The notes: generated from the sequence alone by a model not told the origin. A DNA stretch of 64,000 nucleotides from an uncultured Holophagae bacterium (GCA_963844865.1 CAWJPY010000013.1:135821-199820), one strand, 5' to 3'; shown: positions 4,189-38,904, counted from the stretch's first letter. Numbers and translations are program-made.

Positions 4189-4234
4189 TCGCTTGTTGTA
4201 CCACAGCTTCGCGATGTCGTGATGAGCATCGTTA

Positions 4235-4700
4235 CGCCCCACGCGGCGGCGCCACATGGCATGACACGCAGTCGCGCTGAGACAGTGGGTCGCTCGAGCA
4301 GTGTGTCATCCTGAGGCCGCCACTCGGTCCGCCCAGTGCGGCCGAAGGATCCCCTGCCAGCACCACTACCGTGCCCATGCTTCGCCCCACGGGCCGTCGG
4401 GGGGCCCTACGACTCGCGGCCGAGGGCCGCTCGCTCCCAACGGCACACCCTTGTTCTGTCATGGTGAGCGAGGAGCTCGCCGTCGGCGGCGAGCGACGAG
4501 TCGAACCATCCCCCGAAGGCCCGTGGGGCGCCTCCCAGCCACGACGCTGGTGCTCTCGGGGGATCCTTCGACTCCCTCCGGAGGACCTCCGCTCGCTCAG
4601 GATGACACCGAGGCGGGTCGGCCCACCGTCTCTCAACGGCTCCGCGTCATGCCATGTGACACCGCCCCGAAGGAGCGTATCGATGCTCAGGATGACAGCA
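4235..4700. repeat. Head-to-head pair of family-A composite REP-like elements
   Basis: Forward part: ...atgacacgcagtcgcgctgagacagtgggtcgc...gtcatcctgagg...gaaggatcccc. Reverse part: tgtcatggtgagcgaggagctc...ggggatccttcgac...cgctcgctcaggatgac...gctcaggatgac. Confidence 0.65.
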
Positions 4701-11780: not shown

Positions 11781-11928
11781 TGAGGCGTCCAGCGCTCGGC
11801 CGCAGCGTTGCCTCGCTGTCAATGACATGCCTTCGTGCCGTCCTGGTGAGTATTCGTAGGCCCCTCGGGGCGGTGTCTCGGGTGCTGACCTGGAGCCACG
11901 GGAAGGCGGCCGCCTCCCCACTCCACCT

Positions 11929-12877
11929 GTCATTCTGAGCGAGCGGAGGTCCGCCGGAGCGAGTCGAAGAATCCCCCGAGAGCACCAGAGTCGTGGATGG
12001 GAGGCGTCCCACGGGCCTTCGGGGGACTCCTCGTCGCTTCGCTCCTCGGAATGACACGTGTGCGCCTCGTCCCACGGGCCTTCGGGGGATGGTTCGACTC
12101 GTCGCTCGCCGAGGACGGCGCGCTCCTCGCTCACCATGACAGGACAAGGCCATATCACTGGGGGCGACGTTGCGCCCCGCCCCCGTCGGTGCCGCATGGG
12201 ATGACACGGGACCGCGCGGAGACAGTGGGACGTCCAAGTTGCCTGTCATCCTGAGCGAGCGGAGGTCTTCCGGAGCGAGTCGAAGGATCCCCCGGGAGCA
12301 CCAGAGTCGTGCCCTGGGGGCGTCCCACGGGCCTTCGGGGGACTCCTCGTCGCTTCGCTCCTCGGAATGACACGTGTGCGCCTCGTCCCACGGGCCTTCG
12401 GGGGATGGTTCGACTCGTCGCTCGCCGCCGACGGCGCGCTCCTCGCTCACCATGACAGGACAAGGCCATATCATTGGGGGCGACGTTGCGCCCCGCCCCC
12501 GTCGGTGCCGCATGGGATGACACGGGACCGCGCGGAGACAGTGGGACGTCCAAGTTGCCTGTCATCCTGAGCGAGCGGAGGTCTTCCGGAGCGAGTCGAA
12601 GGATCCCCCGGGAGCACCAGAGTCGTGCCTGGGGGCGTCCCACGGGCCTTCGGGGGACTCCTCGTCGCTTCGCTCCTCGGAATGACACGTGTGCGCCTCG
12701 TCCCACGGGCCTTCGGGGGATGGTTCGACTCGTCGCTCGCCGCCGACGGCGCGCTCCTCGCTCACCATGACAGAACAAGGCCATGTCGCTGGGAGCGACG
12801 TTGCGCCCCGCCCCCGTCGGTGCCGAGTTGTGTGACACGAGGCGTGCGGAGCCGTTCCGTCGGACGCGGACACGGAC
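11929..12877 (+). repeat. Tandem array, 3 copies x 316 bp, of the family-A composite REP-like unit
   Basis: The word gtcatYctgagcgagcggaggtc starts at 11929, 12245 and 12561, exactly 316 nt apart. Long stretches are identical between copies. The third copy degenerates after about 12800. Confidence 0.85.
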
Positions 12878-25844: not shown

Positions 25845-27107
25845 ATGAAGTTGCCTCTCAGGCGGCTGCTGACCACGGACTTCTGGCGATCCATCGGTGT
25901 CAATCAGGCGGTGGTGGCGGTGTCGGTGGCCCGCCTCGCCGATGCCATGGGCAACAGCATCCTCTTCATCGTCATCCCGGTCTTCGTGAAGAAGCTGCCC
26001 GACGACCTCATCGCCATGCCGGTGGAGATCAAGGTGGGCGTGCTGATCTCCCTCTACGGGTTCGTCGTGGCCCTGCTGCAGCCGCCGGCCGGGGCGCTCT
26101 CGGACCGCCTGGGGCGACGCAAGATCCTGATGCTCATCGGCCTGTTGGTGATGGCCCTGGGGACGGTGTCTTTCGCGTTCGCCGACCGGTACCTGGAGCT
26201 GCTCTTCCTGCGCGCGGCGCAGGGCGTGGGCATCGCCCTGACCGTCCCCGCCGCCATGGCCATCCTGGCCTCGGTGACGGAGCGGAGGTCGCGGGGCGGC
26301 GCCATGGGCTTCTACACCACCCTGCGCCTCGTCGGCTTCTCCATCGGGCCGCCGGTGGGGGGCTTCCTGCAGGTCCACTTCGGCTTCGACTCCGCCTTCT
26401 TCACCGGTGCCGGGCTGCTCCTCCTGGCCTTCGTGGCGGTGCAGCTCTGGGTGCCCGACGTCCGGGTGCCGCCCCCCAAGGAGGGTGAGGAAGTGCCGCC
26501 CTTCCGGATCATCGACCCCGCCCTGCTCAGCCCGGGGATCCTGGCGGTCTCCCTCGCCACCTTCGCCATGGCCGCCGCCTTCTCCATGGTGGTGACCCTG
26601 GAGAACGAGTTCAACGCCCGCCTAGGCATGACGGCGGTGGGCTTCGGAGTCGCGTTCAGCGCGCTGATGGTCGGCCGCCTGGCGACCCAGGTCCCCCTCG
26701 GGAGGCTGTCCGACTACATCGGTCGCAAGCCCCTGATCGTGGGGGGGTTGCTCCTGACGGTCCCGGTGACCATCGGTCTCGGTCTGGCCGCGTCCGATCT
26801 GGAGTTCCTGCTCCTGCGGGTGGCCCAGGGGGTGGCCGCTGCGGCCATCGCGGCGCCCGCCCTGGCCCTGGCCGGGGACCTCTCCGGCTCCGGCGGCGAG
26901 GGCCGCCAGATGAGCGTGGTGACGACCGGCTTCGGTCTCGGCATCGCCGTCGGGCCGCTGGTGTCGGGGCTGCTGGCGGTGTTCTTCTTCGAGCTCCCGT
27001 TCCTGGTGATGGCGGGCTTCTGCGTGGTGGCGGCCCTCGTCATGCTGCGCTATGCCGAGGAGACGGTCAGTGAAAGTCGTGACTGGCGATTCTGGCGTCG
27101 GTCCTGA
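25845..27107 (+). CDS. MFS transporter
   Basis: 12-TM pattern with MFS motif A 'GALSDRLGRRKIL'. Start placed at ATG 25845 ('MKLPLRRLL'). The upstream part of the 586-aa ORF is antisense read-through of the MtfA-like gene. Confidence 0.8.
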   Translation: MKLPLRRLLTTDFWRSIGVNQAVVAVSVARLADAMGNSILFIVIPVFVKKLPDDLIAMPVEIKVGVLISLYGFVVALLQPPAGALSDRLGRRKILMLIGLLVMALGTVSFAFADRYLELLFLRAAQGVGIALTVPAAMAILASVTERRSRGGAMGFYTTLRLVGFSIGPPVGGFLQVHFGFDSAFFTGAGLLLLAFVAVQLWVPDVRVPPPKEGEEVPPFRIIDPALLSPGILAVSLATFAMAAAFSMVVTLENEFNARLGMTAVGFGVAFSALMVGRLATQVPLGRLSDYIGRKPLIVGGLLLTVPVTIGLGLAASDLEFLLLRVAQGVAAAAIAAPALALAGDLSGSGGEGRQMSVVTTGFGLGIAVGPLVSGLLAVFFFELPFLVMAGFCVVAALVMLRYAEETVSESRDWRFWRRS

Positions 27108-30100
27108 CCGCCTCGAAGCCCTCCGCCTTCACCGACAACGTGCCGTCCCGCTTCTGGAGGACCCCGTCCACGATGAGCAGGGGCGAGGTGACCACCAGCC
27201 TGCGGTTGGCCCGGAACAGGTCCGGGGGGACGATGGCCTGCACGGTCCCGGTCTCGTCCTCCATGGTGAAGAACACGAAGCCCCTGGCCGTCCCCGGCCG
27301 CTGGCGGACGATGACCGCGCCGCCGGCCCGCACCCGGCTGCCGTCGGCGAGGTCCGGGAGCGAGGCCAGGGGCGTCACCCCGCGCCGGTCCATGTCTGAG
27401 CGCAGGTAGCTCATGAGGTGGGGGCCCGTGGTGAGGTGGAGGCCGGCGTAGTCGGCGACGGTCTCCTCCAGGTCGCTCATCTCGGGCAGGGGCGAGGCCG
27501 CCTCCGGGGGGAGGTGGGCCAGCAGCGGGCCGCGCCGCGCCGTCACCTCGGCCACCTGCCACAGGGCCTGGCGGCGGGTCAGCCCCAGGGACGCCAGCGC
27601 CCCCACGTGAGCCAGCAACGCGAGCTGCTCCTCGTCGAGGGCGCAGCGCTGGGCGAGGTCGGCGAGGTTTGAGAAGGGGGCGCGGGTCCGCTCGCACTCG
27701 ATGGTCTCGCCGGCTCTCCGGCGCAGGCCGTGCACGTAGCGCAGCCCGATGCGCACCCCGCCCTCCTCCCAGCGGCAGCGCCAGCCGGAGCGGTCGACGT
27801 CCACCGGATGGACCTCCACCCCGTGCCGCTGGGCGTCCTTGAGGAGGGTGGCCGGGTGGTAGAAGCCCATGGGCCAGGCGTTGAGGAGGCCGACGTAGAA
27901 GGCCGCCGGGTGGTGGCGCTTGAGGTAGGCCGAGGCGTAGACGATGAGGGCGAAGCTGGCGGCGTGGGACTCGGGGAAGCCGTAGAGGGCGAAGGAGGTG
28001 ATGGAACGGACGATCTCCTCCTGGGCGGCGCCGGACGATGCCGCGCTCCGTCATACCGGCGCGGAGCTTGCGCTCGATCGGTCTGCATCCGCTCCCGGGA
28101 GCGCTTGAAGCCCATGGCCCGCCGCAGCTCCTCCGCCTCGCCGCCGGAGAACCCCGCCGCGACCATGGCGATGCGCAGGAGCTGCTCCTGGAAGAGCGGC
28201 ACCCCCAGGGTGCGCTTCAGCATCGGCTCGAGGCAGGGGTGGGGGTAGGTGACGGGCTCGCCGCCCCTGGCGGCGCTCGAGATACGGGTTGGTCATGTTG
28301 CCGACGATGGGGCCGGGGCGGATGATGGCCACCTGGACCACCAGGTCGTAGAAGCGCTCGGGGCGGTTGCGCGGCAGCGACGCCATCTGCGCCCGGCTCT
28401 CGACCTGGAACACCCCGGCGGTGTCGGCGCGCGCGGAGCATGCCGTAGGTCTTCGGGATCGTCGGGGGGCAGGTGGGCGAGGTCGAGGTCGACGCCCTCG
28501 TGGGCGCGGATCAGCGGGATCGCGTCCTCGAGGGCGCGCCAGCATGCCCGAGGCCCAGCAGGTCGACCTTGATGATCCCGAGGTCGGCGCAGTCGTCCTT
28601 GTCCCACTGGATGACGGTGCGGCCGGGCATGGCGGCGGGCTCGAGGGGGACCACCTCGTCGAGGCGCCCCTGGGCGATGACCATGCCCCCGGAGTGCTGG
28701 CCCAGGTGGCGGGGGAGGTTGCTGGATCCGCCACCAGAGCTCTTGAAGTGCTCGGCGCGCGGACGGGGTCGATGTCCGACGGCCGCGAGCTCCGCGTCCA
28801 GGTCGCGGGCCCCCGTCCCGGATGTCGCTGGAGGCGTGGCGGCCGAGCTGTTTGGCCAGCCGGTCGACCTGCTCCGGGGCGAAGCCCAGGGCCTTGCCCA
28901 CCTCCCGGGCCGCCGAGCGGTCGCGGTAGGTGATGACGTTGGCGGTCATGGCGGCGCCGTCCGGCGCCGTAGCGCCGGTAGACGTACTGGATCACCTTCT
29001 CGCGCTGGTCTCCCGAGGGCAGGTCGAGGTCGATGTCGGGCCACTCGCCCCGCTCCTCGGAGAGGAAGCGCTCGAACAGCAGCTCCATCTTCACCGGATC
29101 GACGGCGGTGATGGAGAGGGCGTAGCAGACGGCGCTGTTGGCGGCCGAGCCGCGGCCCTGGGCGAGGATGCCCTCGCGCTGGCAGAAGCGGACGATGTCC
29201 CAGACGATGAGGAAGTAGCCGGCGAGGTCCGAGCTTCTCGATCAGCGCGAGCTCGTGCTCGATCTGGGCCTGGGCGCGGGCGGTGAGGGGCCGGAAGCGG
29301 GCGCGGGCGCCGTTCCAGGTGACCTGGCGCAGGTACGAGTCCGGCGTCTCGCCGGGCGGCAGGGGGTAGTCGGGGAAGCGGTAGCCCAGGTCGGTCGAGG
29401 GTGAAGTCGAGCTCGCTGGGCGAGCTCGCCAGCGGCGGCCACGGCCCGCGGCAGGTCGGCGAACAGGGCGGCCATCTCGGCGGGGTGCGCGCAGGTGGCG
29501 CTCGCGCTCGGCGTCGAGCAGGCGGCCCGCGGTGTCGAGCGTCATGCCCTCGCGGATGCAGGTGAGAACATCGGCGAGCTCCTTGTCCTCGGCGCCGGGC
29601 GTAGCGCACGCCGCCGGTGGCGACGAGCGGCAGCCGCAGGCGGCGGGCGAGGTCGAGCAGGGCGCTGTTGCGGTGCTCCTCGCTCGCGCAGGTGGTGGCG
29701 CTGGATCTCCACGTGCAGGCGGCCATCGAAGAGGTCGGTGGAGGTGCTCCAGCTCGCGCCGCGCCGCCTCCAGGCCGCGGTGCACGAGGCGCTGCGCAAC
29801 CACCCCCTCGGCGCCGCCGGTGAGGCAGTGCAGGCCGCGGGCGTGCTCGGCGATCTCGGTCCCAGCTCGCCCGAGCCTCGCCCTTGGGCCGACCGCGGGC
29901 GGCGGCGGTGAGCAGCCGGCACAGGTTGCGGTAGCCGCGGCGGTCGGCGGCGAGCAGGGTCAGCCGGGGCAGGGGCGTGCCGGGAGGGGGAGGGTCGGGG
30001 ACGAGGCCCAGGGGGCCCCTCCGGTCCACCCACCCCTCCAATCTTGAATTTGGGTTCGGGTCGTCGTCGAGGACGACCTCGGCGCCCACCAGGGGCGTGA

Positions 30101-30275
30101 TGCCGGCGGCGGTGGCCGCCTTCCAGAAGCGCGGCGCCCCCGACAGGCCGTTGCGGTCCACCAGGGCCACGGCGCCGAGCTCCAGCTCCGCCGCCCGCTC
30201 GACGAGGTCCTCGGGCTCGGACGCGCCCTCCAGGAACGAGAACGCCGACGCGCAGTGCAGCTCCGCGTACCTCAT
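27067..30275 (-). pseudogene. dnaE2: Error-prone DNA polymerase III alpha subunit DnaE2, broken by roughly 10 frameshifts as assembled
   Basis: Conserved blocks are scattered over all three minus frames: 'MRYAELHCASAFSFLEGAS', 'LFDGRLHVEIQRHHLRE', 'EEHRNSALLDLARRLRLPLVATGGVRYA', 'DLGYRFPDYPLPPGETPDSYLR', '[22 protein letters not shown]', '[10 protein letters not shown]', '[12 protein letters not shown]', '[28 protein letters not shown]', and C-terminal 'FFTMEDETGTVQAIV'. Confidence 0.85.
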
Positions 30276-30304
30276 GCCGAGCCTCTGTACGCCCCGCGAG
30301 GAGC

Positions 30305-30665
30305 GGTGCCGCATCGGATGACACGGGGCCGTCGAGCGGCGGCCGGCTGCCCCACTCCGCCTGTCATCCTGGGCATCCCTGCATCTCTTCGCGGCGGTGT
30401 CTCATGGGATGACACGGGACCGCGCGGAGACAGTGGGACGTCCAAGTTGCCTGTCATTCTGAGCGAGGGTCGGTCCGCCGGAGCGAGTCGAAGAATCCCC
30501 CGAGAGCACCAAGGTCGTGCCTGGGAGGCGTCCCACGGGCCTTCGGGGGATGGTTCGACTCGTCGCTCGCCACGGACGGCGAGCTCCTCGCTCACCATGA
30601 CAGAACAAGGGTGTGTGATTGGGAGCGAGCGGAGGTCCGCCGGAGCGAGTGGGAGGATCCCCTTC
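30305..30665 (+). repeat. Family-A composite REP-like element between the imuB relic and dnaE2
   Basis: ggtgccgcatcggatgacacgg...gtcatcctgggc...gtcattctgagcgagggtcgg...cccacgggccttcgggggatggttcgactcgtcgctcgcc...ctcaccatgaca. Confidence 0.7.
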
Positions 30666-30905
30666 AGAGCAGCAGCCACGTCCCACCGCAGGACGCGAAC
30701 GCGGGTTCTGTCCACTGCCGCCGGTCGCTGATCACGGCCGCCGTTGGCCGCCGCTGCCGCTGATACGACGCGCTCCGGGAGCACCAGAGCGGGTGCCAGG
30801 CACTCTCTTCGACCGCAGCGACCGAGCACATCGCAGCGACAGACGGGGTGCCTGGCATCCTCTCTGGCCTGCTCAACGAGCCGGCCCCCGGACGCGGGGT
30901 GATCG

Positions 30906-30965
30906 GTCATACATCCCATCGGCGTGCCACTCCCCGGACCTGCGATCGCGGTAGATCCGGTAGAG
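30906..30965 (-). pseudogene. Relic of an imuB 3' end (last 20 codons only)
   Basis: The minus strand encodes LYRIYRDRRSGEWHADGMYD. The C-terminus of the intact imuB at 32852 is LYRIYRDRRSGDWYADGMYD (18/20). 24 nt (gcgatcgcggtagatccggtagag) are identical at 30942-30965 and 32891-32914. Confidence 0.7.
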
Positions 30966-31005
30966 ACTCCTCCCGGCTCGGCCGCGGCCTCCGCTGGAGA
31001 GATTC

Positions 31006-31034
31006 AGTGTAGGCATAAACAAGACATAAAACAA
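31006..31034 (-). promoter_or_regulatory. Second copy of the imuA-type promoter/operator: TTGTTT-17-TACACT with conserved spacer TATGTCttgTTTATGCC
   Basis: Minus-strand reading. The spacer matches the imuA promoter spacer (36075-36091) at 14/17 positions. It is followed by the same GGAGGCC element. Confidence 0.5.
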
Positions 31035-31042
31035 GGGACTAC

Positions 31043-31077
31043 TTGACAACGAATAGATTAGTACTAAATTTTTAGTA
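31043..31077 (+). promoter_or_regulatory. Candidate blaI promoter TTGACA-16-TAAATT, overlapped by the perfect palindrome TACTAAA-TT-TTTAGTA that ends in the start codon
   Basis: TTGACA at 31043-31048, TAAATT at 31065-31070, palindrome at 31062-31077. ATG at 31077 is 7 nt after the -10 box and there is no Shine-Dalgarno sequence. Confidence 0.5.
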
Positions 31078-31463
31078 TGAACCGACGCAACGCAGCCCGT
31101 CTGACCGACTCGGAGCTCGAGATCATGCAGGTGATGTGGCAGCTCGACGGGGCCACGGTGCGCCAGGTGCACGACGTGATCTCCGAACGCCGTCAGGTCG
31201 CCTACACCACGGTCATGACGATCATGAACATCCTGGAGGAGAAGGGGCATCTGCGTCGGACCAGCCGGGAGGGCAGGGCCTACGTGTACGAGCCGGTCCG
31301 TCCCAAGGACGAGGTCATCGCCTCCATCGTCGACGACTTCGTGGGACGGGTCCTGGAGGGCTCGGCCCATTCCCTGGTCGCCGGCCTCATCGAGCACAAG
31401 AAGCTGTCGAAGCGGGACCTCGAGGAGATCGCCCGGCTCATCGAGGAGGCAGACGAGTCATGA
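31077..31463 (+). CDS. BlaI/MecI/CopY-family transcriptional repressor
   Basis: 'LTDSELEIMQVMWQLDGATVRQVHDVISERRQVAYTTVMTIMNILEEKGHLRR' is a winged-helix Penicillinase_R domain. 128 aa. Confidence 0.9.
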   Translation: MNRRNAARLTDSELEIMQVMWQLDGATVRQVHDVISERRQVAYTTVMTIMNILEEKGHLRRTSREGRAYVYEPVRPKDEVIASIVDDFVGRVLEGSAHSLVAGLIEHKKLSKRDLEEIARLIEEADES

Positions 31464-32806
31464 CCACGGCGAATCTCGTCAGCTACGCGTTGCAGACCGG
31501 AGCCGTCCTGCTGATCGGGCTTTTCGCGCCGCGCGTCCTCCGCCTGCGCGCCCCGGGCGTCGCCCTGCGCTACTGGCAGCTCCTGCTGGCCACGGTCCTG
31601 CTGTTGCCCTTCCTCCAGCCATGGCGGGTCGCCAGTGCCGGCTCGGTGACGGTGGAGGCCGTGGGGGCGCTGCTCACCAGCAGTGCTCGCGCAGTGGCGC
31701 CGGCGAGCCGGGGGGCGACCGTCACCGGATGGATCCTGCTCGGCCTCGCGCTGGTGGCGGCGGTCCGCCTGATCTGGCTGGCGGTGGGGCTCGCCGTGCT
31801 GCGTTCCTATCGGAGAGCGGCGCGGCCCCTGGGCCGCGTGCCACGGGCTGTGATCGAGCTGCTGGGTGCGTCGAGGACGCGCGTGCGGCTGCTGGTCTCG
31901 AATCGAATCCCGGTCCCGGTCACCTTCGGCTGGTTGCGGCCGACTGTGCTCCTGCCCCGGGGCTTCGAGGATCTGCCGGAGCCCTACCAGGTGAGCATCG
32001 CGTGCCACGAGCTCATGCACGTCCAGCGCCGGGACTGGCTCGCCGTGGTGACGGAGCGTTCGCTCCGCGCCCTGCTGTGGTTCCACCCGGCGGTGCCGAT
32101 CCTCCTGCGGCGGATCGGGCTCAGCCGCGAGCAGATCGTGGACCGCGAGGTCGTTCGTCTCACGGGGAGGAGACGAGACTACCTGGATGCGCTCTGGTCC
32201 ATGGCCCGTTGGCAGGAGCGGGCGACGTCCACTCCCGCCCTCTCCTTCCTCAACCGCAGCGATCTCTTCGAACGAGTGGCTCTGCTGACCCGGGAGGTCA
32301 AGATGTCGAAGCTACGCCTGGCGACCGCGGTCGCCGCCCTCGGAGTGTCGGTCACGGTGGCCGGTGTGGCCGCTGCGGCGGCCTTTCCCCTGGTGAGAAC
32401 CCGGGCCGGTGAGCTGGCCGCGTCGACCGCCTCGAGGGATGTCGAGGTGGCGGCGGCGAGCGACGAGGGCGGCCCCGTGCGTTACCAGCCGGGAGGTGAG
32501 GTCACCGAGCCGAAGATCCTCACCAAGGTGAACCCCGTCTACCCCGAGGAGGCCAGGAAGAAGGGCCTGGAGGGCCTCGTGGTTTGCGAGGCCATCATCA
32601 CGGCCGAGGGCACGGTGTCCAGCCTGAAGATCCTCAAGTCCTCTGACGAGGCCTTCGACCAGCCGACGATCGACGCCCTGATGCAGTGGACCTTCGAGCC
32701 TGCCACCCTGCACGGCAGACCGGTGGATGTGATCTACATCCTGACGGTCAGGTACAGGCTGTCCGATGAGGAGTCCCACGAGCAGGGCGGGGAGAGCGAC
32801 GGCTAG
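31460..32806 (+). CDS. BlaR1-like M56 metallopeptidase sensor fused to a TonB C-terminal domain
   Basis: ATGA overlap with blaI. TM helices, 'SIACHELMHVQRRDW' (HExxH of M56), further TM. C-terminal 'VTEPKILTKVNPVYPEEARKKGLEGLVVCEAIITAEGTVSSLKILKSS...' (TonB_C). Confidence 0.85.
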   Translation: MTTANLVSYALQTGAVLLIGLFAPRVLRLRAPGVALRYWQLLLATVLLLPFLQPWRVASAGSVTVEAVGALLTSSARAVAPASRGATVTGWILLGLALVAAVRLIWLAVGLAVLRSYRRAARPLGRVPRAVIELLGASRTRVRLLVSNRIPVPVTFGWLRPTVLLPRGFEDLPEPYQVSIACHELMHVQRRDWLAVVTERSLRALLWFHPAVPILLRRIGLSREQIVDREVVRLTGRRRDYLDALWSMARWQERATSTPALSFLNRSDLFERVALLTREVKMSKLRLATAVAALGVSVTVAGVAAAAAFPLVRTRAGELAASTASRDVEVAAASDEGGPVRYQPGGEVTEPKILTKVNPVYPEEARKKGLEGLVVCEAIITAEGTVSSLKILKSSDEAFDQPTIDALMQWTFEPATLHGRPVDVIYILTVRYRLSDEESHEQGGESDG

Positions 32807-32851
32807 GGTGCTCGGGCCGAGGTCGAGCTCCCGGTCCGCCCCGGCGTCGGG

Positions 32852-34480
32852 TCAGTCGTACATGCCGTCGGCGTACCAGTCGCCGCTGCGGCGATCGCGG
32901 TAGATCCGGTAGAGGCCGCCACCGGAGAGCTCCACGTCCCAGTAGTCGCGCTCCACCGGCTCCGCGCGCCACCAGCCCTCCTCCAGGGACCACGGGCCGG
33001 CCGCCACCCGCACCAGGCCCTGGATGCGGGGCCTCGCCTCCGCGACCGAGGCGACGGAGACCAGGCGAGATCTTGAACTTTGAGCTTTGAATCTTGACGT
33101 GTCGGACGGCGGCGAGCTCTGCGCCGACTCATGACTCCCTGGCTCAGCCACGCGTCCCTCCCCCCGAGAGGGGCGGAGGAGCTCTGAGCTCTCCTCGGTG
33201 ATGACCTCCAGGGGGACGGGGGGGCGCAGGACGCGCACCACCAACAGCCCCCGCCCCCGGCCGGAGGCGCGGCGCAGGAGGGGCGCCGGCGGCGGGTCGA
33301 AGGGGACGCTCTCCTCCCGCTCCGGGAGATGGCCGTCCACCGTGCGCGGCGAGCCCACCCGGTCGGGACCGAGGCGGGCGGTCAGCCGGGCGAGGGTGGT
33401 GGCGAGCCTGTCGGGGGAGATCTCGGGGGCGCCGAACAGGGTGAGCTGGCCGCGCCGGGGGCGGTCCGGGTGCACGGTGCACACGAAGGCCACCACCGGC
33501 CCCCGCGGAGGACGGGCCTCCAGCTCGAGCCGGATCAGGGCGAGCAGGGCCTCCATCTCCCGGATCGGGGCGGGCAGGCGGATGGGACGGCGGTCGTTGC
33601 CCTCCGGCTCCAGGGTGAGCTCCAGCTCGAGCACGGTGCAGGCCAGGTCCTGCCGCTCCAGACGGCGGCGGATGCGCTCCAGCGCCTGGCCGATGGCATA
33701 CAGGAGCGGCTCCGTGGTCACCACGGCCCACTCCAGCTCGGCGCCCTCGGTGAGGGCGAGGGAGAGGTGGTGGGGCACCAGGGGACGGTCGTCCTCGCCG
33801 CGGGCGGCACGGTGGGCGGCGGCCCCGGCCTCCCCGAGGCGGCTCGCCACCCGGTCCGCGGGCAGGCGGGCGAGGTCACCGATGGTGGCGACCCCCCAAC
33901 GGGCCAGGGTGGCCGCCAGCCGCCGGTCGAGGGCCAGCTCGCCCAGGGGCAGGGGCGCCAGGAAGCGGGCCTCGTCGCCGGCGGGGATCACCGTGGGCGT
34001 CTCGGGGCGGCGGGAGGCGACGGCGGCCGCCGGCTTGTTGGCGGCGATGCCGACCCTGACCGGCAGGTCCAGGGACTCCGCCATGATCACCGCGGTGCGA
34101 CCCAGGTCGCCCTCGCCGCGGGCGCCGGGGTAGAGCCGGTCCATGTCGCCCACCTGGGCGAAGAGCTCCTCCTCGGCGGCGACCTCCACCGCCGGCGACA
34201 GGCTCCACGCCACCTCCAGCAGCGCTTCCCGGGCCGAGTCCTCGCACCCGGGATCGCGGCCGCGGGCGATCAGGGAGGGCAGGATGCTGCGCGCCTGGGC
34301 CAGCGTCATACCGGCACGCACCCCCGCGCGGCGGGCCGGACGGGAGGCCGCCGCCACCCGGGCGGTGGAGCCGCTGCCCTGGCAGACCGCCACCGCCTCG
34401 CCGGCGAGCTCGGGCTCGGCCCGCAGCCGCGCGGCGAGGGGGAACAACGGCACCCAGAGGCAGGCGATGCGGCTCACCAC
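32852..34480 (-). CDS. imuB: ImuB, Y-family-polymerase-like subunit of the mutasome
   Basis: 'RIACLWVPLFPLAARLRAEPEL', 'GMTLAQARSILPSL', C-terminal 'WDVELSGGGLYRIYRDRRSGDWYADGMYD'. Start assigned to GTG at 34480/34477. The upstream part of the 601-aa ORF is translated repeat DNA. Confidence 0.85.
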   Translation of the reverse strand: MVSRIACLWVPLFPLAARLRAEPELAGEAVAVCQGSGSTARVAAASRPARRAGVRAGMTLAQARSILPSLIARGRDPGCEDSAREALLEVAWSLSPAVEVAAEEELFAQVGDMDRLYPGARGEGDLGRTAVIMAESLDLPVRVGIAANKPAAAVASRRPETPTVIPAGDEARFLAPLPLGELALDRRLAATLARWGVATIGDLARLPADRVASRLGEAGAAAHRAARGEDDRPLVPHHLSLALTEGAELEWAVVTTEPLLYAIGQALERIRRRLERQDLACTVLELELTLEPEGNDRRPIRLPAPIREMEALLALIRLELEARPPRGPVVAFVCTVHPDRPRRGQLTLFGAPEISPDRLATTLARLTARLGPDRVGSPRTVDGHLPEREESVPFDPPPAPLLRRASGRGRGLLVVRVLRPPVPLEVITEESSELLRPSRGEGRVAEPGSHESAQSSPPSDTSRFKAQSSRSRLVSVASVAEARPRIQGLVRVAAGPWSLEEGWWRAEPVERDYWDVELSGGGLYRIYRDRRSGDWYADGMYD

Positions 34481-34494
34481 GTTCTCCCAGCGGC

Positions 34495-34694
34495 GTGGGG
34501 AATGAAGAAAGAACGCAGAGGCGCAGAGGCGCAGAGCCACCGCCCACCCCGGAAGAAGACAGAACGCAACGACGCGAAGACGCCAAGGCGCAGGGCCCCC
34601 GCCCGCCCGACAGAAGAACGAAACGCAGAGACGCGGAGGCGCAGAGCCCCCACCCACCGCCTTGGGGTGAGAAGTGAGGAGTGAGGAGTGGGAA
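34495..34694. repeat. Family-C repeat units (34495-34660), followed by heptamer tract GTGAGAA GTGAGGA GTGAGGA GTGGGAA (34667-34694)
   Basis: gaacgcagaggcgcagaggcgcagagcc...cccccgcccgcccgacagaagaacgaaacgcagagacgcggaggcgcagagcccccaccc. Compare 11547-11620. Confidence 0.6.
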
Positions 34695-34746
34695 GATCCC
34701 CCGCCCGCCCCGAGACGTCCGACGACGGCCGGCCGATCCTATTTGG

Positions 34747-35000
34747 TGTCATCCTGAGCATCCCTATGCCCCTTCGGGGCGGTGTCACAAGCGATGACAC
34801 GCAGTCGTTCAGAGACGGTGGGCCGACCCGCCTGAGTGTCATCCTGAGCGAGCGGAGGTCTGCCGAAGCGAGTCGAAGGATCCCCCGAGAGCACCAGAGT
34901 CGTGGCTGGGAGGCGTCCCACGGGCCTTCGGGGGATGGTTCGACTCGTCGCTCGCCGCGGACGGCTCTCTCCTCGCTCACCATGACAGCACAAGGCCATG
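34747..35000 (+). repeat. Family-A composite REP-like element inside the imuA-imuB spacer
   Basis: gtcatcctgagcatccc...gtcatcctgagcgagcggaggtctgccgaagcgagtcgaaggatcccccgagagcaccagagtcgtgg...cccacgggccttcgggggatggttcgactcgtcgctcgcc...ctcaccatgaca. Confidence 0.7.
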
Positions 35001-35026
35001 TCATTGGGAGAGCACGGGATGGCCCC

Positions 35027-35165
35027 GATCGCTGTCGCCGATCGCTGACTGCTGCCGCTGCCCGCTGCCCGCCGACGCTGACGGCTGCCACTGTCGCCGA
35101 CACGGGCGCGGACGCGGGTTCCGGATGCTGCCTCTGCTGCTTCCCGCTGTCGCTGTCATCGTCGG
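35027..35165. repeat. Family-D micro-repeat tract (inverted orientation, GCTG-rich)
   Basis: gatcgctgtcgccgatcgctgactgctgccgctgcccgctgcc... Confidence 0.5.
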
Positions 35166-35246
35166 CTCTACAGGGAGAAGAGGAGGAAGACGAAGGAGAA
35201 GGTGAGGGCGAGCAGCCCCAGGGCCGACATGCCGAGCCGGATCGCC

Positions 35247-36035
35247 TCAAAGGGCCTGGACATGGGAGACCTCCTCATCGGCGCGGTCGCGGTCGCGATC
35301 GGGTGGGGGCGCGAACGCGGCCTCGGGCAGGACGAAGACGGTGGGGGCGGCCTCGTGAGGTCGCCGACCGCGGCGCCGCAGCACCTCCAGGTGCGCCTGG
35401 AGCCCTTCCAGCAAGCGCGGCGAGCCCACGGCGCCGGACCAGCGGCCGCGGCCCCGGCCGGCACTCACCACCACCGCGGCGGCGCAGCCGCTCACATGGT
35501 AGGGAGAGCCCACCAGCACGGCCGTCCGGCGGCCGGCGGAGCTGCGGGCGAGGCGCAGCCAGGCGGCCAAAGGCGCCCGTCCCCGCACCGGCGGCAGACC
35601 GAGGTCGAGGGCGACCAGGGAGAAGCCGGTGGAAACTAGCATCTCGGCCGCCGCCAGGGCATCGGGCAGGTTCTTCGGGCGCAGCCACAGCAGCCGCTCC
35701 AGGTCGATGCCCACCGCCGCCGCCGCCTGGGGGTCGAGCTGGGAGCCCTGGTCCAGGAGCGCCGTCGCCTCGCCGGTGTCGGTCACCATCTTGAGGGCCG
35801 CCAGCAGGGTGGCGAAGCGACCGCTGGAGCCCCGGCCCACCAGCTCCACCACGCATCCCCGGGGCAGGCCGCCCTCCAACAGCTCGTCCAGCTCCGCCAC
35901 CGAGGTGGCGAAGGGCGGGTCGCGGAGCTCGGCGTGGTTGCGGCGGGCCAGCTCCGCGGCGGGGCGGACCATGGAGCGCACCTCCTCGGGGAGGGCGTCG
36001 GCGAGGTGGCGGAGGGTGGGGGTGTGAACGGTCAT
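35247..36035 (-). CDS. imuA: ImuA, RecA/SulA-like mutasome subunit
   Basis: Start at ATG 36035 with GGAGG 5 nt upstream. 'LDELLEGGLPRGCVVELVGRGSSGRFATLLAAL' and 'FSLVALDL' are typical of ImuA. 262 aa. Confidence 0.75.
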   Translation of the reverse strand: MTVHTPTLRHLADALPEEVRSMVRPAAELARRNHAELRDPPFATSVAELDELLEGGLPRGCVVELVGRGSSGRFATLLAALKMVTDTGEATALLDQGSQLDPQAAAAVGIDLERLLWLRPKNLPDALAAAEMLVSTGFSLVALDLGLPPVRGRAPLAAWLRLARSSAGRRTAVLVGSPYHVSGCAAAVVVSAGRGRGRWSGAVGSPRLLEGLQAHLEVLRRRGRRPHEAAPTVFVLPEAAFAPPPDRDRDRADEEVSHVQAL

Positions 36036-36068
36036 GGGGGGCCTCCATGAATCGAGGGTCCACTCCCC

Positions 36069-36097
36069 ACTATAGGCATAAATGCGACATAAATCAA
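36069..36097 (-). promoter_or_regulatory. imuA promoter TTGATT-17-TATAGT with candidate operator TATGTCgcaTTTATGCC in the spacer
   Basis: Minus-strand reading of 36097..36069. About 27-nt leader to the imuA ATG. The core is duplicated at 31006-31034. Confidence 0.6.
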
Positions 36098-36121
36098 GAA
36101 AGGTACGAGGGTGGGAGCTCG

Positions 36122-36253
36122 CTGCAGCGGACGAGGCCGGGAAGCCTCGCCGCTGAGCTCGCGCTGGTAGGCCCTTCGGTTGGCGACAAGGAGCTTCGGG
36201 TTTGCCATGTTCTGCAGCGGACGAGGCCGGGGAGGCCTCGCCGCTGAGCTCGC
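36122..36253 (+). repeat. Two direct copies, 90 nt apart, of a REP-like hairpin CTGCAGCGGaCGAGGCC-loop-GCCTCGCCGCTGAGCTCGC
   Basis: Copy 1 at 36122-36162, copy 2 at 36212-36253. Each has a 12-13-bp stem with one bulged A. Confidence 0.65.
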
Positions 36254-36594
36254 CGAGGAGCGCTTCACAGAGAACAGCACCTTCCTCGGGCGTGCCACTG
36301 GTGACACTTTCTCGAGGCGTCGCATGCCGGCCTCGTGTCGTCTGTGGTCGGGAAAGTGTCAGCGGTGGCAACCGCGGGGAAGGCGAAGACAGCATTATGA
36401 CGAGACCGCGAATCATCCCCTGTGGAATCGCGACCCTCCGCGGCTGTCCCCGACCATCACCGAGACCGGGCCAGATGGGCCCGCGGTGACACTCCGATTC
36501 ATCTGAGCCTCAGTCGCACAATGTATTGACCTACTTGAAAATATGGGCAGAGATGAGTACATTGACGCCAGTCTGGGCCGAGGGAGGATGTGCC

Positions 36595-37452
36595 GTGGCC
36601 GAGCTCCTCAAAGTGGAAGAAATCGCCCCTGCGTTCAAGCGCTACCTGGTGCACGCGCCGGAGATCGCGCGCAAGCACCGGGCGGGCCAGTTCGTGGTCG
36701 TCCTCCTCCACGACGAGGGTGAGCGCATCCCGCTCACCATCGCCGACGCCGACGCCGAGGCCGGAACGATCACCCTGGTCGTGCAGGAGGTGGGCAAGAC
36801 GACCATGGAGATGGGCACCTTGAAGGCGGGCCAGGAGATCGTGGTGGTGGGGCCCCTCGGCACGCCCACCCACATCGAGAAGGTGGGCACGGTGGTGTGC
36901 GTGGGTGGCGGCGCCGGCATCGCCCCCCTGCTGCCCATCGCCCGCGCCCTCCGGGAGGCCGGCAACCACGTGGTGTCGATCCTGGGTGGGCGGACGGAGG
37001 AGCTGGTCATCATGCGGCCCGAGATGGAGGCCGCCTCGGACGAGATGATCTACACGACGGACGACGGCAGCTTCGGCACCAAGGGCCTGGTGACCCATGC
37101 CCTGCAGGCCTTCATCGACGAGCGGGGCAAGCCGGCCATGGTGGTGGCCATCGGCCCGGCCATCATGATGAAGTTCGTGGCCGAGCTGACCAGGCCGCTG
37201 GAGATCCCGACGGTGGTCTCCCTCAACACCATCATGATCGACGGCACCGGCATGTGCGGCGGCTGTCGCGTGGCGGTGGGGGGAGAGAGCAAGTTCGTGT
37301 GCGTGGACGGACCCGAGTTCGACGCCCACAAGGTGGACTTCGATCTGATGATGAAGCGGCAGCGCATCTACCTCGAGCAGGAGGAGATCGCCCGCCGCCG
37401 CTTTTTGGAACGGCACCAGTGCCAGGCGCTGCAGGCCGAGGAGGTGAGCTGA
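36595..37452 (+). CDS. NfnA/SudB-like FAD/NAD-binding [2Fe-2S] oxidoreductase subunit (dihydroorotate-dehydrogenase electron-transfer-subunit fold)
   Basis: 'FKRYLVHAPEIARKHRAGQFVVV', 'VCVGGGAGIAPLLPIA', 'IDGTGMCGGCRV'. Start chosen as in-frame GTG 36595, 8 nt after gggagga. The ORF maximum begins at 36526. Confidence 0.8.
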   Translation: MAELLKVEEIAPAFKRYLVHAPEIARKHRAGQFVVVLLHDEGERIPLTIADADAEAGTITLVVQEVGKTTMEMGTLKAGQEIVVVGPLGTPTHIEKVGTVVCVGGGAGIAPLLPIARALREAGNHVVSILGGRTEELVIMRPEMEAASDEMIYTTDDGSFGTKGLVTHALQAFIDERGKPAMVVAIGPAIMMKFVAELTRPLEIPTVVSLNTIMIDGTGMCGGCRVAVGGESKFVCVDGPEFDAHKVDFDLMMKRQRIYLEQEEIARRRFLERHQCQALQAEEVS

Positions 37453-38904
37453 TGGCCCGTGAGCTGACACCCAAGGAGCGGATGAAGATTCCGCGTCAGG
37501 CGATGCCGGCCCAGGAGCCCATGGAGCGGATCCGCAACTTCAACGAGGTCGCTCTCGGCTTCACCCCCGAGCTCGCCGTCGCCGAGGCGGAGCGCTGCCT
37601 CGCGTGCAAGAAGCCCAAGTGCATCTCGGGCTGCCCCGTGGGCATCGACATCCCGGCCTTCGTGCAGGCCATCCAGGACCAGCGCTTCGAGGACGCCCTG
37701 GCGATCATCAAGAAGGACAACACCCTGCCCGCCATCTGCGGCCGTGTCTGCCCGCAGGAGGACCAGTGCGAGAAGGTCTGCGTCACCGGCGTCAAGCACG
37801 AGCCGGTGGCCATCGGACGCATGGAGCGCTTCGTGGCCGACTGGGAGATGTCCAGGGGCGAGATCAACATGCCCCAGCAGGCGCCGCCTACCGGTTTCAA
37901 GGTGGCCATCGTGGGCTCGGGTCCCTCCGGTCTGGCCTGCGCCGCTGATCTCGCCATCCGCGGCCACCACGTGACGATCCTCGAGGCTTTGCACAAGCCG
38001 GGCGGGGTGCTGGTGTACGGCATCCCCGAGTTCCGACTGCCCAAGGCCATCGTGCAGGAGGAGATCGTTCAACCTCAGGAAGCTGGGGGTGGAGATCCGC
38101 TGCAACTTCGTGGTCGGAAAGACTGCCACCGTCCAGGAGCTCTTCGACGACTACGGGTACGACGCCATCTTCCTGGGCACCGGCGCCGGGCTGCCCTACT
38201 TCATGGGCATTCCGGGCGAGAACTACATCGGCGTGCTGTCGGCCAACGAGTTCCTGACGCGGGTCAACCTCATGAAGGCGTTCTCCTTCCCCGACTACGA
38301 CACCCCCGTGCAGCTCGGCAACCGGGTGGCGGTGGTGGGCTCCGGGAACGTGGCCATGGACTGCCTGCGCACCGCCAAGCGTCTGGGCGCCGAGGAGGTC
38401 ATCTGCCTCTACCGCCGCACCCGGGCGGAGTCGCCGGCGCGTCTGGAGGAGCTGGAGCACGCCGAGGAAGAGGGTATCGACTTCCGCTGGCTGAACGCTC
38501 CCGTGGAGATCTACGGCGACGACGAGGGGCGGGTGACCGGGGTGCGGGTGATCAAGATGGAGCTGGGCGAGCCCGACAGCTCCGGACGCCGGCGCCCGGT
38601 TCCCATCGAGGGCAGCGAGTACGACGTTCCCCTCGACAACGTCATCATGGGCATCGGCCAGGGCCCGAACCCACTGGTCACCAAGAGCACCGAGGGGCTG
38701 CAGCTCAACCGCTGGGGCAACATCGTGGTGGACGAGGAGACCATGATGACCTCGATCCCGGGCGTCTTCGCCGGCGGGGACATCGTGACCGGCGCCGCCA
38801 CCGTCATCCTGGCCATGGGGGCCGGCAAGAAGGCCGCGGCGGGCATCGCCGACTACCTCAAGCAGAAGAGCCAACCGGCCGCGGACGCGCAGGCGACGGC
38901 CTGA
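37452..38904 (+). CDS. NfnB/GltD-like NADPH-dependent oxidoreductase (glutamate synthase small-subunit family), with one frameshift near 38062-38068 as assembled
   Basis: N-terminal half 'RNFNEVALGF...CLACKKPKCISGCPVGIDIP...VAIVGSGPSGLACAADL...YGIPEFRLPK' is in one frame. The remainder 'FNLRKLGVEIRCNFVVGKT...AVVGSGNVAMDCLRTA...VFAGGDIVTGAATVI' is in the next frame. A 4-nt 'gttc' sits where one codon is expected. TGATG coupling to the upstream subunit. Confidence 0.8.

Follow-up and report, generated by a model that had tools for sequence, protein, structure and literature searches.

LexA-regulated imuA-imuB-dnaE2 cassettes, including forms in which the genes are split, have been described (Abella 2004 and Erill 2006, as cited in PMC3919608), the mycobacterial imuA'-imuB and dnaE2 loci are treated in PMC10421592, and the role of the C-terminal region of ImuB is treated in PMC6511836. 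The stretch of DNA analyzed here, called the window, is 64,000 nt long and comes from an uncultured Holophagae bacterium. It contains an imuA-imuB-dnaE2 translesion (mutasome) cassette in which a blaI/blaR1-like gene pair (blaRI) lies on the opposite strand between imuB and dnaE2, next to a predicted second copy of the imuA promoter and a fragment of the 3' end of imuB, the relic. The locus is best explained, with a probability of about 0.6, as a genuine and old form of the cassette with two promoters, shared across its clade, in an acidobacterium of Thermoanaerobaculia type; it would have arisen by duplication or acquisition of a cassette copy and reciprocal loss. For comparison, 93 related loci (L numbers) were classified by tblastn and motif scans.

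On the minus strand from 27 to 36.1 kb, the order is promoter P1, imuA, a 31-amino-acid (aa) open reading frame (ORF), a spacer, imuB, the blaR1-like gene and blaI on the opposite strand, promoter P2, the relic, a second spacer and dnaE2. The features that carry the argument are the following.

36069-36097, minus strand: P1, predicted sigma-70-type imuA promoter (TTGATT-17-TATAGT; scan 9/12), with the direct repeat TTATGT-N5-TTATGC in its spacer
35247-36035, minus strand: imuA, 262 aa, RecA-like (Pfam RecA 46.4 bits, cutoff 27)
32852-34480, minus strand: imuB, 542 aa, inactive Y-family polymerase homologue (PF00817 68 bits, cutoff 23.2)
31460-32806, plus strand: blaR1-like membrane protease gene, Peptidase_M56 (PF05569) 75.7 bits with HELMH, C-terminal TonB_C 72.6 bits
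31077-31463, plus strand: blaI/CopY-family repressor gene, 128 aa, Penicillinase_R winged-helix domain (PF03965, 112.8 bits)
31043-31077, plus strand: predicted blaI promoter (TTGACA-16-TAAATT; scan 10/12)
31006-31034, minus strand: P2, predicted second cassette promoter-operator copy (TTGTTT-17-TACACT), back-to-back with the blaI promoter
30986-30992, minus strand: GGAGGCC, a Shine-Dalgarno-like heptamer common with the imuA leader, a weak signal read from the sequence
30903-30976, minus strand: imuB 3' relic, the last 20-24 codons, with the stop now CGA
27067-30275, minus strand: dnaE2, error-prone polymerase, frame-corrected product of 1062-1063 aa

Family scans confirmed that imuA, imuB, the inverted blaI/blaR1-like pair and dnaE2 lie where the first-pass annotation had placed them. 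The RecA-type ATPase core is present in ImuA, and the best NCBIfam match of this protein was ImuA_translesion, at 48 bits compared to a cutoff of 150 for a model of 181 positions. ImuA and ImuA' are divergent proteins. The gene is found directly 5' of imuB in more than 60 related loci, and the window imuA is 94% identical to the gene at the same position in L002. In ImuB, the catalytic carboxylates are lost (DinB Asp8 to Trp9 and Asp10 to Pro11, in an alignment with a hand-entered DinB sequence). The core is followed by a C-terminal extension of approximately 200 residues, which ends in a W..ADG.YD motif invariant in 21 homologues; the window protein has LYRIYRDR..W.ADGMYD. It is 100% identical to one database ImuB-like protein, and its database homologues are labelled as proteins from Thermoanaerobaculales, Holophagae or Acidobacteria metagenome-assembled genomes. 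The frame-corrected DnaE2 matched NF004225 ('error-prone DNA polymerase') over its full length with 1275.6 bits (curated cutoff 939), a cutoff that is passed only once the frame is restored, and, among intact proteins, it was 94% identical to P0121 and 92% identical to P0122. The family assignment stands although the frame is broken, the breaks being judged assembly errors. Exact database look-ups of the window BlaI and of P0001 returned no record, a scan of genome contigs returned a single match, a distant Gemmatimonadales locus, and Rfam gave no match over 26000-37500.

The window has the same three gene families as the described cassettes, with imuA before imuB and a putative repressor-type operator inside the promoter. 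A separate copy of the regulatory site has been retained for dnaE2, which is also the case in the split cassettes already described. In contrast to those cassettes, the split is local (approximately 2.5 kb) and not to a distant locus, and the gap contains a divergently oriented blaI/blaR1-like pair with its promoter next to P2. Moreover, the operator is a direct repeat, TTAYRY-N5-TTAYRC, to which LexA binding is only presumed, a conserved ORF of 31-36 aa lies between imuA and imuB, and an imuB 3' relic is present at the junction. The first-pass annotation had called such cassettes normally contiguous and LexA-regulated; the regulation agrees with the literature, and the contiguity was overstated, since split and separately regulated cassettes are described (PMC3919608). 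The layout found here, which is old and also present in relatives, is therefore an evolutionary variant and not a new kind of system. In the searched literature there was no paper joining imuA, imuB and BlaR1, nor was there a local split by a BlaI/BlaR1-like pair, a constant abutment of pair and promoter, a direct-repeat operator, the small ORF or a preserved relic.

The second copy of the imuA promoter rests on two comparisons. The sequences 31005-31035 and 36068-36098 are identical at 25 of 31 positions, and a degenerate 29-nt pattern, TTGATTTATGYNNNRTTTAYRCCTAYANT, has two sites in the window, P1 and P2, compared to 0.00 expected. The operator half-sites TTATGT-N5-TTATGC are the same in both promoters, whereas the spacer and hexamers differ. 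The consensus of these promoters (P), TTGAYTTAYGC..TTATTTAYRCCTATACT, contains good -35 and -10 hexamers with 17 nt between them, and this spacer includes a direct repeat, TTAYRY-N5-TTAYRC, with a period of 11. In 743 kb of related loci this repeat had 53 matches (0.35 expected), every one of them 5' of imuA or dnaE2, and the P1 motif is kept 5' of imuA in 40 or more related loci. By analogy with LexA-regulated cassettes, contiguous or split (PMC3919608), the direct repeat is most likely a damage-response operator. Just 5' of P1, in L002 and L003 as well as in the window, there are two hairpin-type direct repeats of approximately 45 nt, 90 nt apart (36122-36162 and 36212-36253).

The relic at 30903-30976 was found to be 78% identical to 32852-32925 over 74 nt, with the exact 24-nt core noted at first pass, and it matched ImuB residues 519-542 in tblastn with E=3.5e-8. 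It begins at imuB codon -24/-20, and no start codon follows P2. No further copy was present in the window; having a single partner there, the relic is not a dispersed repeat, as the first-pass annotation had allowed that its 60-nt similarity might be. In the eleven codons after the 24-nt core plus the former stop (TGA>CGA), there are nine differences relative to the imuB in place: six are synonymous, including the multi-step changes CGC>AGG and AGC>TCC, two change the amino acid and one is the stop. These chiefly synonymous differences indicate that the relic descends from a functional but diverged imuB and is no recent duplicate of the resident gene. The relic matches the resident imuB at 50/60 positions and imuBs of 54-67% protein identity at 46-51/60. 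It is thus no closer to the resident gene than to distant imuBs, and the 24 identical bases are no sign of recent copying. Between the window and L002 relics there are four differences (none at first, three at second and one at third codon positions), all of which change the amino acid, a pattern that indicates that coding constraint is gone.

Homology beyond the relic, upstream and downstream of its stop, was not significant. Among the 93 loci the relic was found in the window and L002 only, and a degraded relic sought in the P2-dnaE2 leader of L006 gave a Smith-Waterman score no better than shuffles. From GGAGGCC through the relic, 30875-30992 is 93% identical to L002 5672-5790, compared to 67-87% for the adjoining non-coding DNA; this high identity could come from constraint or from recent exchange. 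Like remnants of duplication and reciprocal loss or of homology-facilitated illegitimate recombination, the relic is a short 3' gene fragment at a rearrangement joint beside an intact copy. Unlike such remnants, it derives from a diverged allele and survives in one lineage only. A 215-aa ORF (30272-30919, minus strand) begins in the relic, crosses the spacer and overlaps the dnaE2 start (ATGA), and in L002 it is open to the contig end; it is probably spurious, the coding model calling the region non-coding. A second imuB 3' end in L031 was rejected as a parallel case: it belongs to an exact 406-nt repeat (1-406 and 2485-2890; imuB 3' end plus spacer) at the contig start and is probably an assembly loop through the repeat.

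The split and the second promoter turned out not to be confined to this genome. The closest relative (ImuB 93%) is represented by three short-read assemblies, L002-L004, and in all three the order is imuA, the small ORF, imuB, the opposite-strand blaR1-like gene and blaI, P2, the relic and a repeat of the type found in the window spacers. The order imuA-imuB-(insert)-blaR1-blaI-P2-dnaE2, with the pair inverted, occurs in six Thermoanaerobaculia-type lineages, among them the window and L002, L006, L007, L090 and L092. The last two carry an additional S8 peptidase gene, followed by a BNR protein gene in L090 and by a 171-aa ORF in L092. P2 homologues abut blaI in L002, L006, L007, L090 and L092, and the distance between the -35 elements of blaI and P2 is 8-9 nt in all lineages of the split layout. 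Contiguous forms exist as well. In L091 and L019/L093 the cassette is contiguous and P2 is kept 6-18 nt before dnaE2, L005 is contiguous without P2, and L029 has imuB-S8-BNR-P2-dnaE2. In a sister clade of eight loci, the inverted blaR1-blaI pair stands upstream of imuA, followed by P, imuA, the small ORF, imuB and dnaE2, without P2.

The blaI/blaR1-like pair is therefore tied to a mutasome promoter in two different positions, in 14 related lineages. Of the 19 loci that were resolved in a more distant clade, none has it, and many are without an adjacent dnaE2. In the distant acidobacterial clade (ImuB 48-56% identical; L036, L041, L045, L051, L054, L056, L057 and others), dnaE2 does not lie within 2-8 kb 3' of imuA-imuB, indicating that distant splits are common in the phylum. 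In a neighbor-joining tree of ImuB, the P2-bearing forms make up one clade, within which the contiguous cassettes with P2 are nested, and the upstream-of-imuA forms make up its sister clade. The shared layouts and the tree together show that the split and the second promoter are old and clade-wide. Lying just 3' of an imuA-type promoter, the relic is best read, from its sequence and position, as the scar of a lost imuA-imuB copy, because the sister-clade layout minus imuA-imuB would leave blaI-P-relic-dnaE2. The first-pass interpretation is thus supported in part: the deletion scar is retained, with the sister-clade layout and the diverged relic in its favor.

Divergence at four-fold sites between the window and the L002/L009 genome changed sharply along the locus. 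It was 4.4% in imuA and 8.9% in imuB, 30% in blaR1 and 40% in blaI, 13-16% in the dnaE2 flanks and 17.5% in the MFS gene that follows dnaE2. The switch points are the imuB stop and a point between P2 and the relic, and the blaRI-P2 module lies between the 3' end of the resident imuB and the relic. These sharp shifts indicate that allelic exchange went on at the locus, which is a recombination mosaic.

According to the two-promoter explanation, P1 would drive imuA, the 31-aa ORF and imuB as one transcript and P2 would drive dnaE2 as a separate one. A single damage-response repressor, presumably bound at the direct repeat, would release P1 and P2 together after damage, so that the three mutasome proteins would still be co-induced although the operon is split. 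The blaI/blaR1-like pair between the two units, transcribed in the opposite direction from a leaderless promoter that it would itself repress, would be regulated on its own. By the simplest route, a blaRI-P-imuAB unit would have been duplicated, or a second cassette acquired, and, after reciprocal loss, a blaI-P unit would stand before dnaE2, with an intact copy of P-imuAB on the other side, upstream of blaR1. The stretch of imuB 3' end (60-74 nt) between P2 and dnaE2 would be the scar of the lost copy, kept in the window and L002 only, and later allele exchange would have produced the mosaic.

Several observations weigh against this explanation. Both imuAB copies were found together in none of the 93 loci. 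The spacing from blaI to P is unequal, at least 33 nt when the pair is upstream of imuA compared to 8-9 nt in the split layout. The ImuB tree has no support values. The relic occurs in a single lineage although the layout is old, which needs either a long-lasting function or a later exchange. No significant similarity was found between the P2 leader and the P1 leader or imuA 5' end; the GGAGGCC element described at first pass is shared, being only 7 nt long and differently spaced in leaders that are otherwise unlike. The P2 hexamers in the window and L002 are weaker (7/12) than those of the relatives, and P2 is followed by a repeat-filled leader of approximately 730 nt. P2 expression in these two is uncertain for these reasons, and DnaE2 output may be lower here than in relatives whose P2 adjoins the start codon. 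As for the repressor, searches of the window and the fetched loci by tblastn with LexA and RecA queries gave no lexA or recA.

In a rival history, which is considered rather unlikely, P2 would be the ancestral dnaE2 promoter and never that of imuA. The gap between imuB and P2 would be an insertion hotspot, taking up blaRI here and S8 peptidase and BNR genes elsewhere, and the relic would have come later, through homology-facilitated recombination of a blaRI-P2 allele with the imuB 3' end of a diverged, P2-less cassette. The position of P2 6-18 nt before dnaE2 in contiguous L091, L019 and L093 fits such a history, as do the variable inserts (blaRI alone; S8-containing plus blaRI in L090 and L092; S8 plus BNR alone in L029), the relic being a diverged allele, the mosaic breakpoints at the imuB stop and the P2/relic junction, and the existence of P2-less contiguous relatives such as L005. 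Recombination of this kind accounts for the relic equally well. However, it does not account for the constant blaI-P adjacency, and blaI adjoining a copy of P in both layouts is left unexplained. The nesting of the contiguous-plus-P2 forms within the blaRI-P2 clade also speaks against it, and since the closest DnaE2 relatives outside the species group have P2, a P2-less recipient is not indicated.

In the window sequence, dnaE2 does not form an intact ORF. Its span of 3209 nt is not divisible by 3, and the frame is interrupted approximately 19 times. Alignment to L008 and L009 at nucleotide level, together with a frameshift-aware alignment, placed the +1 insertions and one or two deletions all within a single tract.

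28036-29859, minus strand: tract of probable errors within dnaE2, 19 single-base insertions and an excess of window-specific substitutions

Once the frame is restored, it is free of stops. A CpG was created by 15/19 insertions (p=3e-6). Window-unique substitutions amounted to 5.1% in the tract compared to 1.2-1.4% in the flanks, and among the 92 in the tract, 61/92 were on codon position 3 and 62/92 were exchanges between G and C. The remainder of the window is nearly free of frame breaks according to the coding-frame model, with imuA, imuB, blaRI and MFS intact. A gltD-like gene (Fer4_20/Pyr_redox_2; 37449-38904, plus strand) is split by one +1 insertion of the same CpG-creating type at approximately 38067 (atcG|ttc), and in L007 and L090, long-read assemblies of the same ENA series, dnaE2, blaR1 and blaI are interrupted with this signature too. 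The nearest relatives L009 and L008 have intact dnaE2 genes (1071 and 1066 aa, respectively). The insertions are very likely consensus errors, arising perhaps where two strains differ, and dnaE2 is probably intact in the organism.

The alternative, that dnaE2 is a true, heavily frameshifted pseudogene in a mutasome that is being dismantled, with the relic, the weakened P2 and the invasion by repeats as signs of decay, is regarded as improbable. It would explain why some 19 frame breaks fall in 1.8 kb while the neighboring genes are intact, and the weaker P2 hexamers and the excess of window-specific substitutions in the tract agree with it; the gathering of the errors in one 1.8-kb tract is not accounted for by the artefact reading. 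In bacterial pseudogenes, however, the known bias is towards deletions, the opposite of the 19 insertions to 2 deletions seen here. The stop-free restored frame, the two thirds of the extra substitutions on third codon positions, the recurrence of CpG-creating +1 insertions in a housekeeping gene of the window and elsewhere in the assembly series, and the intact dnaE2 of L008 and L009 all argue against decay. Two other explanations for the insertions were rejected. Doubled synonymous third-position alleles explain 10/19 only (p=0.035), CpG creation being the stronger signal, and programmed +1 frameshifting at CGA codons fails since several sites have other codons and the signature recurs in unrelated genes and assemblies. 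An apparent dnaE2 pseudogene of this type is thus to be viewed with caution, as it is probably an assembly artefact with a recognizable mark, +1 insertions that create CpG.

A chimeric assembly as the source of the layout, with the relic and promoter similarity a matter of chance or of a dispersed repeat, is very improbable. Repeats do lie on both sides of the genes, short-read contigs of relatives are interrupted by them between the relic and dnaE2, and the error rate of the assembly is raised. However, the joint from imuB through blaR1, blaI and P2 to the relic, whose misassembly had been named at first pass as a possible refutation, recurs in three independent short-read assemblies that run from imuA to the repeat. 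L008 and L009 (the dnaE2-MFS contig of the closest relative) reproduce repeat-dnaE2-MFS, the order is common to five further lineages, the relic matches a single partner, and for P there were 0 chance matches. A chimera is thus excluded save for the repeat stretch itself.

The blaI/blaR1-like pair resembles BlaI/BlaR1 (MecI/MecR1) and CopY-type pairs in that the gene for a winged-helix Penicillinase_R repressor shares bases with the gene for an M56 (HExxH) membrane protease, the blaR1-like start overlapping the blaI stop (ATGA). It also has a palindrome, TACTAA-N4-TTAGTA, over its own promoter. This palindrome, TACTAAATTTTTAGTA at 31062-31077, covers the blaI -10 element and ATG, is single-copy in the window with 0 expected, and is found at the blaI start in relatives as well. 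Its position implies a leaderless blaI that is autoregulated through a putative operator. A BlaI-type palindrome sought at P1 was not found there, being present at blaI only. Unlike in BlaI/BlaR1 pairs, the extracytoplasmic domain is TonB_C, there is no adjacent resistance gene, and the pair is linked to a mutasome promoter. The blaR1-like protein scored 43.7 against NCBIfam blaR1_generic (cutoff 400) and lacks a C-terminal penicillin-binding (class D-like) sensor domain. Because TonB_C stands in the place of that domain, the protein is filed as BlaR1-like only, and a beta-lactam signal is not to be assumed. It is doubtful that the pair is a dedicated second input to the mutasome and not a passenger, in which case an envelope or periplasmic signal would activate the protease, the BlaI-like repressor would be removed beside P and transcription of the abutting mutasome unit would be altered. 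The 31-36 aa membrane peptide could belong to the same membrane link. If true, this would be a non-SOS, envelope-stress path to error-prone synthesis.

The two spacers of the cassette, 766 nt between imuA and imuB and 630 nt between the relic and dnaE2, contain the following further features.

35168-35263, minus strand: conserved 31-aa hydrophobic small ORF, overlapping the imuA end
34747-35017, plus strand: dispersed element of the repetitive extragenic palindromic (REP) or miniature inverted-repeat transposable element (MITE) type, imuA-imuB spacer (repeat search)
34512-34658, plus strand: three 37-nt direct repeats just 5' of imuB (repeat search)
30362-30632, plus strand: REP/MITE-like dispersed element, relic-dnaE2 spacer (repeat search)

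The two REP-like elements are 82% identical over 271 nt and lie in the same orientation, as first annotated. The spacers had been described as filled with this element, which is true of its presence in both; the imuA-imuB spacer also holds the small ORF and the three 37-nt repeats. At least 9 members of this family lie in the window, including those at 1043-1301, 4215-4700 and 11926-12798, and others occur in L002-L004 and L008. Like REP/MITE-like repeats, the family is multi-copy, intergenic, partly palindromic and breaks short-read contigs; unlike them, its unit is composite and approximately 270 nt long, and no cassette-specific role was detected. Strings related to the 37-nt repeats lie 5' of both imuB and dnaE2 in several relatives (L010, L015, L016 and L017 are named). 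Short tandem heptamers and GGGTGGG/CCCACCC elements occupy the cassette spacers of relatives (L006 13620-13750, L014 2230-2440, L092 14290-14420). Similar strings lie in frame within dnaE2 (PNPNSRLEGWVDRRG, 30018-30062) and imuB (SDTSRFKAQSSRSRL, 33060-33105), and the dnaE2 site of L009 contains an additional 20-nt repeat.

In about 25 related loci, imuA is followed by a homologue of the small ORF, 31-36 aa in length and 36 aa in the sister clade. The ORF is called as a gene in L002 (1630-1725), L003, L005 (9388-9483), L006 (9718-9813), L090 (7411-7506), L091 (7322-7417), L092 (7555-7650) and L093 (4225-4320). It has a hydrophobic C-terminal helix (..GLL..F.F..L.F[CS][LV]) and no family match, and it looks like a fourth cassette gene that encodes a predicted membrane peptide. 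In some relatives a 23S_rRNA_IVP (four-helix-bundle) gene lies between the small ORF and imuB (L005 9564-9980, L091 7431-7850), where the window has REP-like sequence.

Taken together, these findings offer TTAYRY-N5-TTAYRC as a candidate operator of the damage response in a class of Acidobacteria that has none in the searched literature. They also reveal a recurrent tie between a BlaI/BlaR1-like signaling pair and mutasome promoters, and a conserved small ORF, predicted to encode a membrane peptide, inside the cassette. In this clade, the operon of a three-protein complex would have been split and yet kept co-regulated through duplication of its promoter-operator, and the preserved scar may allow the path to be reconstructed.

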